From the NCBI GenBank assembly GCA_949295025.1, contig CASFJK010000002.1, positions 21,372-85,371 on the forward strand: DNA of 64,000 bases, in the 5' to 3' direction. Below the pieces are notes generated by a model that was given only the letters and a program-made list of their open reading frames with translations, had not been told where the DNA came from and ran no database searches. The position numbers and the translations under genes are program-made. The DNA comes from an uncultured Pseudomonadota bacterium (GTDB taxonomy: Bacteria; Pseudomonadota; Alphaproteobacteria; RF32; CAG-239). This document shows positions 50,418-51,427 of the stretch, one piece after another. Positions within the stretch are counted from its first letter, which is position 1; each line of letters opens with the position of its first letter.

Positions 50418-51179
50418 TTATTTTTCCTTTTTTTTGTCGTGTTTTGGTTTACATGCCGTTCCGGGAAGGATTGGCTGGTGTCCCATGGCTATATCTGCTT
50501 CAAAACTATTTTTATTGAGCATTTCTTCTATCATGAGACGATATTTTTCTAAATCTGTTTCAGATGCATCTTGAGGAATATAGATGGGATTGCTGAAGAT
50601 GCATATACCTTCATTGAAAGGGTAAGGAATCATCATTTTATCCCATGCTTTTTCCATGATTTTGCATTTTTTGACGCTATATGTTATGCCTATTATCGGT
50701 GCACCGGTTTTATGTGCATAGTATATAGGACTTTCACTCATGTGCATACGAGGGCCTCTGGGACCATCCGGAATAATGCAGATGGCGGTATTATCTTTTA
50801 ATGAGTTCATTAAATTTAAGGCGGCAGCTTTAGCATTTTTGTTACTAGATCCACCAATGGTTCCAAGTCCATATCTTTCTAAAACACCGGCAATAATGCG
50901 TCCGTCTTTATGAAGAGAAACAAGCGCATTCAGAGGAAAGCGATAGTCTCTGAAGGCAGAATACATTAAAGCTCTACCATGCCAGCCGACCAAGATGAAA
51001 GATTGCTTTTGTTCCCATAATTTGATGATATTTTCTCTGTCAATGATTTGCCATTTGGTGGTTTTATATATCAATCTTGTGTATGCATAAATCAAAAGGC
51101 TGATTAAATTGAGAATAAAATCAGTCTGATATAATTTTTTCAAATAAGGTTTAATTTTGCTTTTTATTTTTGCTATCAT
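50418..51179 (-). CDS. DUF374 / lysophospholipid-acyltransferase-superfamily protein
   Basis: ILVGWHGR...SLHKDGRIIAGVLERYG...GGSSNK...IIPDGPRGPR...TGAPIIGI matches DUF374, which is commonly upstream of waaA in alphaproteobacteria. Confidence 0.6.
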   Translation of the reverse strand: MIAKIKSKIKPYLKKLYQTDFILNLISLLIYAYTRLIYKTTKWQIIDRENIIKLWEQKQSFILVGWHGRALMYSAFRDYRFPLNALVSLHKDGRIIAGVLERYGLGTIGGSSNKNAKAAALNLMNSLKDNTAICIIPDGPRGPRMHMSESPIYYAHKTGAPIIGITYSVKKCKIMEKAWDKMMIPYPFNEGICIFSNPIYIPQDASETDLEKYRLMIEEMLNKNSFEADIAMGHQPILPGTACKPKHDKKKEK

Positions 51180-51427
51180 TTTGTTTGAGTATCTACAATT
51201 GAAATGCCAATTTTGTCGTTTTCAGTAATAACGACTTCGCCATGACCGATAAGAACATCGTTAGCATAAATATCAACATAATCATTTACATCTCTATCTA
51301 ATTCAACAACGGCACCACGCCCCAATTTGAGAAGTTGATTGACTCTTAAATCAGCTGTTCCCAGAGTGACGGATACATCGACCAAAATTTCATCTCCAAT
51401 TTCGGCATTTTTGATAAGATGTGACAT
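51176..51427 (-). CDS. FliN/YscQ (SpoA) domain protein, 83 aa
   Basis: EILVDVSVTLGTADLRVNQLLKLGRGAVVELDRDVNDYVDIYANDVLIGHGEVVITENDKIGISIVDT aligns collinearly with the FliN C-terminal SpoA domain. The stop overlaps the start of the DUF374 gene (ATGA). Confidence 0.65.
   Translation of the reverse strand: MSHLIKNAEIGDEILVDVSVTLGTADLRVNQLLKLGRGAVVELDRDVNDYVDIYANDVLIGHGEVVITENDKIGISIVDTQTK

Follow-up and report, generated by a model that had tools for sequence, protein, structure and literature searches.

The window analysed here, a 64,000-nucleotide stretch of contig CASFJK010000002.1 from an uncultured alphaproteobacterium of the CAG-239 lineage, carries on the minus strand (51176..51427) a gene for an 83-amino-acid SpoA/FliN-like protein, which starts with ATG and is the first cistron of an operon for late steps of lipid A biosynthesis. 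We tentatively regard its product as an orphan paralogue of alphaproteobacterial FliN, neither the canonical FliN of a motor nor a decaying relic, and suggest that it may act as a dimeric, peptide-docking accessory adaptor at the inner membrane, expressed together with the late lipid A enzymes; taken jointly, we give these two propositions slightly less than an even chance.

An earlier note, made from the sequence alone, had described a stand-alone FliN/SpoA gene whose product aligns with the SpoA domain of FliN/YscQ, which heads a DUF374-waaA-lpxK operon through an ATGA overlap and which lies outside any flagellar or type III secretion system (T3SS) cluster. These points were borne out. The open reading frame (ORF) encodes a single SpoA domain (PF01052, FliMN_C; 62.6 bits, E=3.3e-17, Pfam cut-off 23.8), which aligns with residues 56-126 of Salmonella FliN at 40% identity with one single-residue gap (E=1.3e-7) and can also be aligned with H. 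pylori FliY/FliN and T. maritima FliN. SpaO and the C-terminal region of YscQ (YscQ-C) matched far less well (E=0.002-0.009), and the SctQ model TIGR02551 scored 41.5 bits against a cut-off of 100.8. Since this similarity is far weaker than that to FliN and there are no sct neighbours around the SpoA gene, we rejected an identity as the T3SS protein SctQ-C. The neighbours of the gene in the window are lon and lpxJ-waaA-lpxK.

An AlphaFold model of the 83-residue protein, computed from 114 diverse homologues, reached a predicted local distance difference test (pLDDT) score of 82; a model from a shallower alignment of gut sequences only (pLDDT 43) was discarded. The top Foldseek matches of the retained model are FliN chains of the Salmonella C-ring (template-modelling (TM) score 0.70, root-mean-square deviation 1.9 A, 40% identity). 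The predicted fold also matches YscQ-C, Spa33-C and HrcQb-C (TM 0.63-0.69), and PDB entries 4yxc, a FliM(SPOA)::FliN fusion with a FliH peptide, and 4yx7 are among its matches. Residues L22, V47, V65 and I67, all hydrophobic, align with L68, A93, V111 and V113 of Salmonella FliN, which, going by the mutational literature on FliN, we take to be the hydrophobic patch for FliH binding. Across homologues three of the four positions are invariant and V47 is either V or I; among 15 diverged SpoA homologues a total of 42 columns are invariant.

The operon itself runs without interruption along the minus strand. Downstream of the SpoA gene lie lpxJ (DUF374, lipid A late acyltransferase; 253 amino acids, 50418..51179; PF04028, 76 bits), waaA (the Kdo (3-deoxy-D-manno-oct-2-ulosonic acid) transferase; 419 amino acids, 49157..50416; PF04413, 196.9 bits) and, as the last gene, lpxK (tetraacyldisaccharide 4'-kinase; 318 amino acids, 48201..49157; PF02606, 292.6 bits). 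The intergenic gaps are -4 nucleotides between SpoA and lpxJ, where the SpoA stop and the lpxJ start share an ATGA (51176..51179), +1 between lpxJ and waaA, and -1 between waaA and lpxK. A Shine-Dalgarno-like GAAAGG (51436..51441, minus strand) stands 8 nucleotides upstream of the SpoA ATG, and GGAG-type motifs occupy this position in most of the 34 related species described below. As judged from this gene anatomy, SpoA and lpxJ would be translationally coupled and the four genes would share a single transcript. A 13-bp hairpin (48164..48195) found by terminator scan between the convergent ends of lpxK and a 78-amino-acid ORF (47919-48155) has a strong T-run on the plus strand only, and probably marks the end of the operon. 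DUF374 has been renamed LpxJ, a demonstrated 3' secondary acyltransferase of lipid A (PMC6148475); a search of that paper's text for 'FliN' gave only the name of an author, and no SpoA/FliN protein is linked there with LpxJ.

This arrangement is widely kept among relatives. In a scan that admitted one genome per species we found 34 related species (L006-L039) with a SpoA protein 61-94% identical to that of the window; identical or near-identical copies come from gut metagenome assemblies and from metagenome-assembled genomes labelled 'Alphaproteobacteria bacterium', 'Azospirillum sp. 47_25' and 'Candidatus Scatocola'. All 34 species retain the order SpoA-lpxJ-waaA-lpxK, with the SpoA stop -8 to +25 nucleotides from the lpxJ start, and in all of them the SpoA frame is intact and 82-87 codons long. 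The lon gene is divergently placed upstream of SpoA in 31 of the 34; the other three lack lon yet keep the SpoA-lpxJ overlap, and the conserved unit is therefore SpoA-lpxJ rather than lon-SpoA. Compared with close relatives, the ratio of non-synonymous to synonymous substitution rates (dN/dS) of the SpoA gene is 0-0.036 over synonymous distances (dS) of 0.2-2, comparable to that of lon and lower than in its operon neighbours (lpxJ 0.045-0.09, waaA 0.03-0.08, lpxK 0.06). The low dN/dS, together with the conserved place in the operon and the invariant columns, therefore marks the SpoA gene as a working gene and not a remnant.

Next to canonical FliN, the window protein falls on the far side of a curated boundary. 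The NCBIfam FliN equivalog model TIGR02480 gave it 74.1 bits (E=6e-21), short of the cut-off of 84.05; a gut relative scored 78.5 bits and stand-alone orphan homologues 64-86 bits, while operon-encoded FliN reached 98.9-104.2 bits, and every operon-encoded alphaproteobacterial FliN exceeded the cut-off by 15-20 bits. The curated model thus separates the groups, and accordingly NCBI names the operon type 'FliN' and the window protein only 'FliM/FliN family'. The canonical homologue, of about 105-125 amino acids, is encoded in a fliF-fliG-(fliH)-fliN-(motA)-flbD-flhA cluster in Acetobacteraceae, Magnetococcales and some Rhodospirillaceae, and canonical fliN always lies either in such a cluster or in fliM-fliN; unlike it, the 83-residue protein has neither the N-terminal extension nor the AVYDIPV motif. 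Its identity is 49-55% to operon-encoded FliN of Alphaproteobacteria and 54-58% to the stand-alone orphans.

These orphans, of 90-160 amino acids, are found in many Rhodospirillaceae (Caenispirillum, Rhodospirillum sp., Roseospirillum, Novispirillum, Oleispirillum), and in about 60 orphan loci we found no flagellar gene within 6-8 kb on either side. In the Rhodospirillaceae loci (L040-L064) the orphan usually follows yejE-yejF of the yejABEF peptide ATP-binding cassette importer and precedes a gene with a glutathione S-transferase (GST) fold, which in one example (L041, 6268-6951) matches the model for the FtsZ-binding division protein FzlA (NF050814) with 292 bits against a cut-off of 300; the yejF/SpoA/fzlA trio is kept across many Rhodospirillaceae genomes. 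The N-termini of several orphans (L059, L061, L063, L066 and P0133) are long and acidic, some with two D-I-D-M-A-A-A-L-A-E-I-E-A-E-E copies, and residues 1-60 of P0136 (L087) hold three copies of Q-D-D-I-D-A-M-F-D, which resemble the CheY-binding LSQxEIDALL of FliM/FliY. The gut SpoA proteins have no acidic N-terminal repeats.

We delimited the orphan FliN-like branch ourselves, as stand-alone proteins with a shared signature encoded outside flagellar clusters, and it is not a curated family. The signature, LRV[NHQ]Q...AN[DN]xL[IV]...GEV[VI][IV]T plus a one-residue insertion, is common to the window protein, which has LRVNQ, ANDxLI and GEVVIT, and to the orphans; the corresponding sites read M-x-V, VNNRLV and GEVVVV in canonical FliN and in the outgroups. 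The window protein accordingly has each feature of the branch, being encoded alone in a non-flagellar position and carrying the C-terminal SpoA domain and the signature. In a neighbour-joining tree (500 bootstraps, about 74 columns; outgroups Salmonella, Thermotoga and H. pylori) gut SpoA joined the orphans in 66% of replicates and canonical FliN in 5%, and orphans joined canonical FliN in 10%. This comparison supports, with moderate confidence, a grouping of the gut SpoA proteins with the stand-alone orphan branch, apart from canonical FliN. A search with the canonical FliN core returned named matches from Fodinicurvata, Magnetospirillum, Telmatospirillum and Arenibaculum, and none from species in which orphans were found. 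Our literature searches turned up no account of an orphan FliN-like branch, nor of a lipid A operon that begins with a SpoA gene; one lead, combining an N4-like Caulobacter phage, smooth lipopolysaccharide (LPS) and FliN, was dropped when the match proved to be to the word 'Flint'.

An exhaustive profile search collected 8820 SpoA proteins at E<=1e-3, among which the gut type accounts for only seven clusters, followed by a gap in score. One lineage (P0196/P0272; 32-34% G+C) has a SpoA protein only 46% identical to that of the window, with lon divergent and the full SpoA-lpxJ-waaA-lpxK order at gaps of 1-4 nucleotides. Its SpoA evolves much faster while the operon position is retained: in P0272 (L098) and P0196 (L093) GEVV has become GEIN, while WaaA is about 60% identical, as in other members of the clade. 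In the P0131 lineage the gene 22 nucleotides after SpoA is msbA, for the lipid A flippase (578 bits, cut-off 602). Two further orphans follow yejF, and others lie by the gene for ribonuclease T or alone. The P0196/P0272 and P0131 contexts therefore indicate that the association with lipid A genes recurs, yet it is not universal for the family.

Flagellar partners were sought in the surroundings of the gene. A tblastn search with FliF, FliG, FliH, MotA, FlbD and FlhA found no match in the window or in the gut loci, for this region only, and Pfam scans of about 50 window ORFs returned housekeeping genes and no flagellar or chemotaxis family. No second SpoA locus was found within the 64-kb window, and about 10 kb beyond it, where a complete Rnf operon lies just outside (L101), there were no flagellar genes. 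Literature on RF32, CAG-239 and Azospirillum sp. CAG offered nothing usable on flagella or motility. A 56-amino-acid YjfB-like ORF (13095-13265, minus strand) matches the 'putative motility protein' family PF14070 at E=0.0024 and 18.3 bits, below the cut-off of 27; the earlier note had taken this ORF as a further flagellar hint, which a match of this strength does little to sustain.

How such a protein might work is suggested by the behaviour of SpoA domains elsewhere. SpoA dimers bind an N-terminal peptide of FliH or SctL. The domains pair into intertwined dimers, from which larger structures are assembled at ratios of 1:3 for FliM:FliN and 1:2 for Spa33-FL:Spa33-C (PMC4832279). The minimal SpoA protein of the window would most likely be an intertwined homodimer, like FliN and the short SctQ-C proteins, and could use the conserved patch of L22, V47, V65 and I67 to dock a short peptide from some partner. 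It would be made from the first cistron of the spoA-like-lpxJ-waaA-lpxK operon and, since its stop overlaps the lpxJ start, should be made every time that the late lipid A enzymes are made. We picture a small cytoplasmic accessory adaptor for a co-made envelope partner at the inner membrane, in the late steps of lipid A synthesis or in export, that would be neither catalytic nor an obligatory component of the pathway. A bolder version, in which a lineage of gut alphaproteobacteria recruited a FliN-derived SpoA dimer away from type III secretion so that it now assists or regulates, as an accessory, the late assembly or export of lipid A (LpxJ-WaaA-LpxK, MsbA), strikes us as improbable, at perhaps a chance in a handful.

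Several observations weigh against the adaptor reading or narrow it. Operon membership is the sole link between SpoA and lipid A, so that any connection beyond co-expression can at present only be presumed, and family members in Rhodospirillaceae adjoin yejABEF and fzlA rather than LPS genes. The placement apart from canonical FliN has only moderate tree support (66%, from about 74 columns), a 15-residue segment, NQLLKLGRGAVVELD, is identical in the window protein and in the canonical FliN of related orders, a pattern compatible with a flagellar partner, for example FliM, common to both, and the acidic repeats at the N-terminus of some orphans are reminiscent of the motif by which FliM/FliY bind CheY. 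There are, moreover, gut bacteria that dispense with the gene. A metagenome scan with WaaA gave, among the matches listed, 80 contigs of the gut clade and none from other orders, and 66 had enough upstream sequence; lpxJ was present in all 66, with SpoA upstream of it in 39 and not in 27. We rejected L114 as a SpoA-less relative: it has a truncated lpxJ and a WaaA that matches a carrier's exactly, and the contig is probably chimeric or broken. The other 26 contigs keep lpxJ-waaA-lpxK without SpoA upstream, and it follows that the lipid A enzymes do not need SpoA, which makes it an accessory. These 26 form three WaaA clusters made up of non-carriers only, nested among carriers and with the nearest carrier WaaA 74-78% identical, and on two or more occasions the SpoA gene has therefore disappeared from this place, by loss or by relocation. 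The conservation of the operon among relatives, to which the earlier note had looked, accordingly stands for the 34 species and fails for these 26 metagenomic contigs; relatives of the latter kind were one half of what it had named as evidence against its view. The SpoA-less contigs (a subset of L124-L182, e.g. L131, L138 and L175) also have no lon upstream and a G+C content of up to 50%; upstream of lpxJ they carry a divergent iron-sulphur/flavin adenine dinucleotide oxidoreductase, rubrerythrin, a Fur-like regulator or a flavodiiron-type protein.

Part of this evidence would sit comfortably with a flagellar role. The protein could serve the flagellar C-ring, or the sorting platform for export, as a second FliN-type subunit with a specialised part, its lipid A neighbourhood being a historical accident of a compact genome, and we consider this unlikely but worth serious attention. 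FliY and FliN coexist in Helicobacter, a model for such a second subunit, and the orphan carriers Caenispirillum, Novispirillum and Roseospirillum are motile spirilla. The 40% identity to Salmonella FliN, the FliN fold and the retained patch positions speak for this explanation, as do the identity of NQLLKLGRGAVVELD to operon-encoded FliN, the FliM-like 'DIDAMF' repeats of some orphans and a patchy loss among gut sub-lineages that resembles loss of motility. FliN positions in the C-ring are also non-equivalent, with FliM:FliN at 1:3 (PMC4832279). A flagellar subunit is harder to square with the lack of flagellar genes around all of the roughly 60 orphan loci, given that canonical fliN is always in a flagellar operon, and with the overlap of the gene with an essential housekeeping operon, from which it would be constitutively expressed. 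Moreover, the lon/SpoA intergenic region has a full CtrA-type TTAA-N7-TTAA site in none of 31 species, and in the P0196/P0272 lineage SpoA has evolved fast (to 46% identity) with its operon position retained.

That the gene instead encodes the sole FliN of a flagellated gut bacterium with scattered flagellar genes, a truncated but fully functional component of motor and export apparatus, appears to us doubtful, and more so than a second subunit. FliN has its functional core in the SpoA domain, and the match to TIGR02480, at 74 bits, is still highly significant (E=6e-21); the weak YjfB_motility match lies 38 kb away, and the window holds no other SpoA gene. The protein nevertheless scores below a curated cut-off that operon-encoded alphaproteobacterial FliN all pass, and sides with the orphans rather than with canonical FliN in the tree (66% against 5%). 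Alphaproteobacterial fliN is, besides, normally embedded in a fliF operon, and flagellar genes are absent from the window and the 10 kb beyond. Least credible is the explanation that the gene is a relic in decay, left over from a vanished flagellar or type III system and retained only because it contains the lipid A operon's promoter and start region. The shortness of the gene, the lack of flagellar neighbours and its loss from some sub-lineages would agree with decay, but a dN/dS tighter than that of the adjacent essential genes effectively refutes it, and a frame intact in 34 of 34 species, 42 invariant columns in 15 homologues and a confidently predicted FliN-like fold (pLDDT 82) point the same way. 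The earlier note had left a choice between a remnant and a repurposed component; the former falls, and the latter remains a live reading. The accessory adaptor of the orphan branch is the explanation that we prefer, with the reservations given above.

To our knowledge, the only recognised use of SpoA domains is in the construction of flagellar C-rings and of the sorting platforms of injectisomes. If a recruitment to lipid A assembly were true, it would be the first function of a SpoA domain outside flagella and injectisomes. More generally, the orphan branch suggests one of two things: alphaproteobacterial motors contain a second FliN-type subunit that has gone unrecognised, or the fold has a use outside secretion. 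Either outcome would change the annotation and interpretation of 'FliM/FliN family' genes, for instance where gene content is used to deduce motility. The gut bacteria in question are uncultured LPS makers common in humans and ruminants, and an accessory factor tied to lipid A acylation could also matter for the host's immune signalling. Until a partner or a phenotype is found, the practical importance is modest.

Upstream of the operon, the SpoA and lon genes diverge from an AT-rich intergenic region of 224 bp (51428..51651), which we aligned across 31 species. It holds a conserved TTGTGGATTAA (51526-51536, plus strand) and a sigma-32-like lon promoter, TTGCAG-N15-CCTATATAAT (51590..51620, plus strand), both hexamer regions of which are conserved in the clade and which resembles the alphaproteobacterial heat-shock (sigma-32) consensus. 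The lon gene itself (51652..53985, plus strand) encodes a protease of 777 amino acids with Lon domains and has the same gene call in identical contigs; its real start is probably the ATG at 51652, because the GTG at 51568 chosen by the ORF finder lies upstream of the promoter. The intergenic region matched no Rfam family and its predicted RNA fold was not significant (z=-1.5), and a sigma-70 promoter scan returned fewer sites than in shuffled sequences.

Elsewhere in the window, which has a G+C content of 37%, a permuted two-piece transfer-messenger RNA (alpha_tmRNA; 22446-22802, minus strand; RF01849, 207 bits) encodes the tag peptide ANDNNVAPVAMAA and assigns the window to the Alphaproteobacteria, and two adjacent paralogous CitMHS transporters of 447 and 449 amino acids stand in tandem (13386-14729 and 14864-16213, minus strand). 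An HU gene is flanked by ORFs of 445 amino acids (54049-55386, minus strand) and 191 amino acids (56145-56720, plus strand), both with N-terminal signal-like segments, no convincing Pfam family and conservation in identical contigs. The segment 57229-63292 encodes a T2SSE-family secretion ATPase of 465 amino acids, followed by a U32 peptidase, an extracytoplasmic function (ECF) sigma factor with small downstream ORFs, and an LTXXQ periplasmic protein. Window ORFs of 220-320 amino acids without a Pfam match lie at 2665-3333, 3422-4261, 7603-8568, 8623-9561, 20804-21700, 22784-23752 and 26868-28323.

Collectively, the SpoA protein of the window has counterparts in several known systems without coinciding with any of them. 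With FliN (TIGR02480; PDB 1yab, 8umd, 9n49) it shares one PF01052 SpoA domain, the predicted fold and the residues of the hydrophobic patch; FliN, however, has about 105-125 amino acids with an N-terminal extension and is encoded in a flagellar operon, whereas the window gene has 83 codons and heads a lipid A operon. The short T3SS products SctQ-C, Spa33-C, YscQ-C and HrcQb-C (PDB 3uep, 4tt9, 1o9y) are likewise free polypeptides with one SpoA domain, of about 80-90 amino acids, and form saddle-shaped intertwined homodimers that act as assembly modules (PMC4832279). Unlike the window gene, which is independent and has its own Shine-Dalgarno-like site, SctQ-C arises from an internal start inside sctQ within a T3SS cluster. 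The lpxJ-waaA-lpxK part of the operon is familiar from the late Raetz pathway, the three downstream genes being ordinary members of their families and tightly packed, and differs in the SpoA cistron, which is present in some lineages of the gut clade and absent from others. The orphans of Rhodospirillales (L040-L064, P0132, P0133, P0136, P0141, P0142) have the same signature, insertion and non-flagellar position and the same NCBI name, 'FliM/FliN family flagellar motor switch protein'. Unlike the window protein, they are 90-160 amino acids long, with acidic and sometimes repeated N-termini, and their genes are placed between yejABEF and fzlA or at other sites, whereas the window gene precedes lpxJ.

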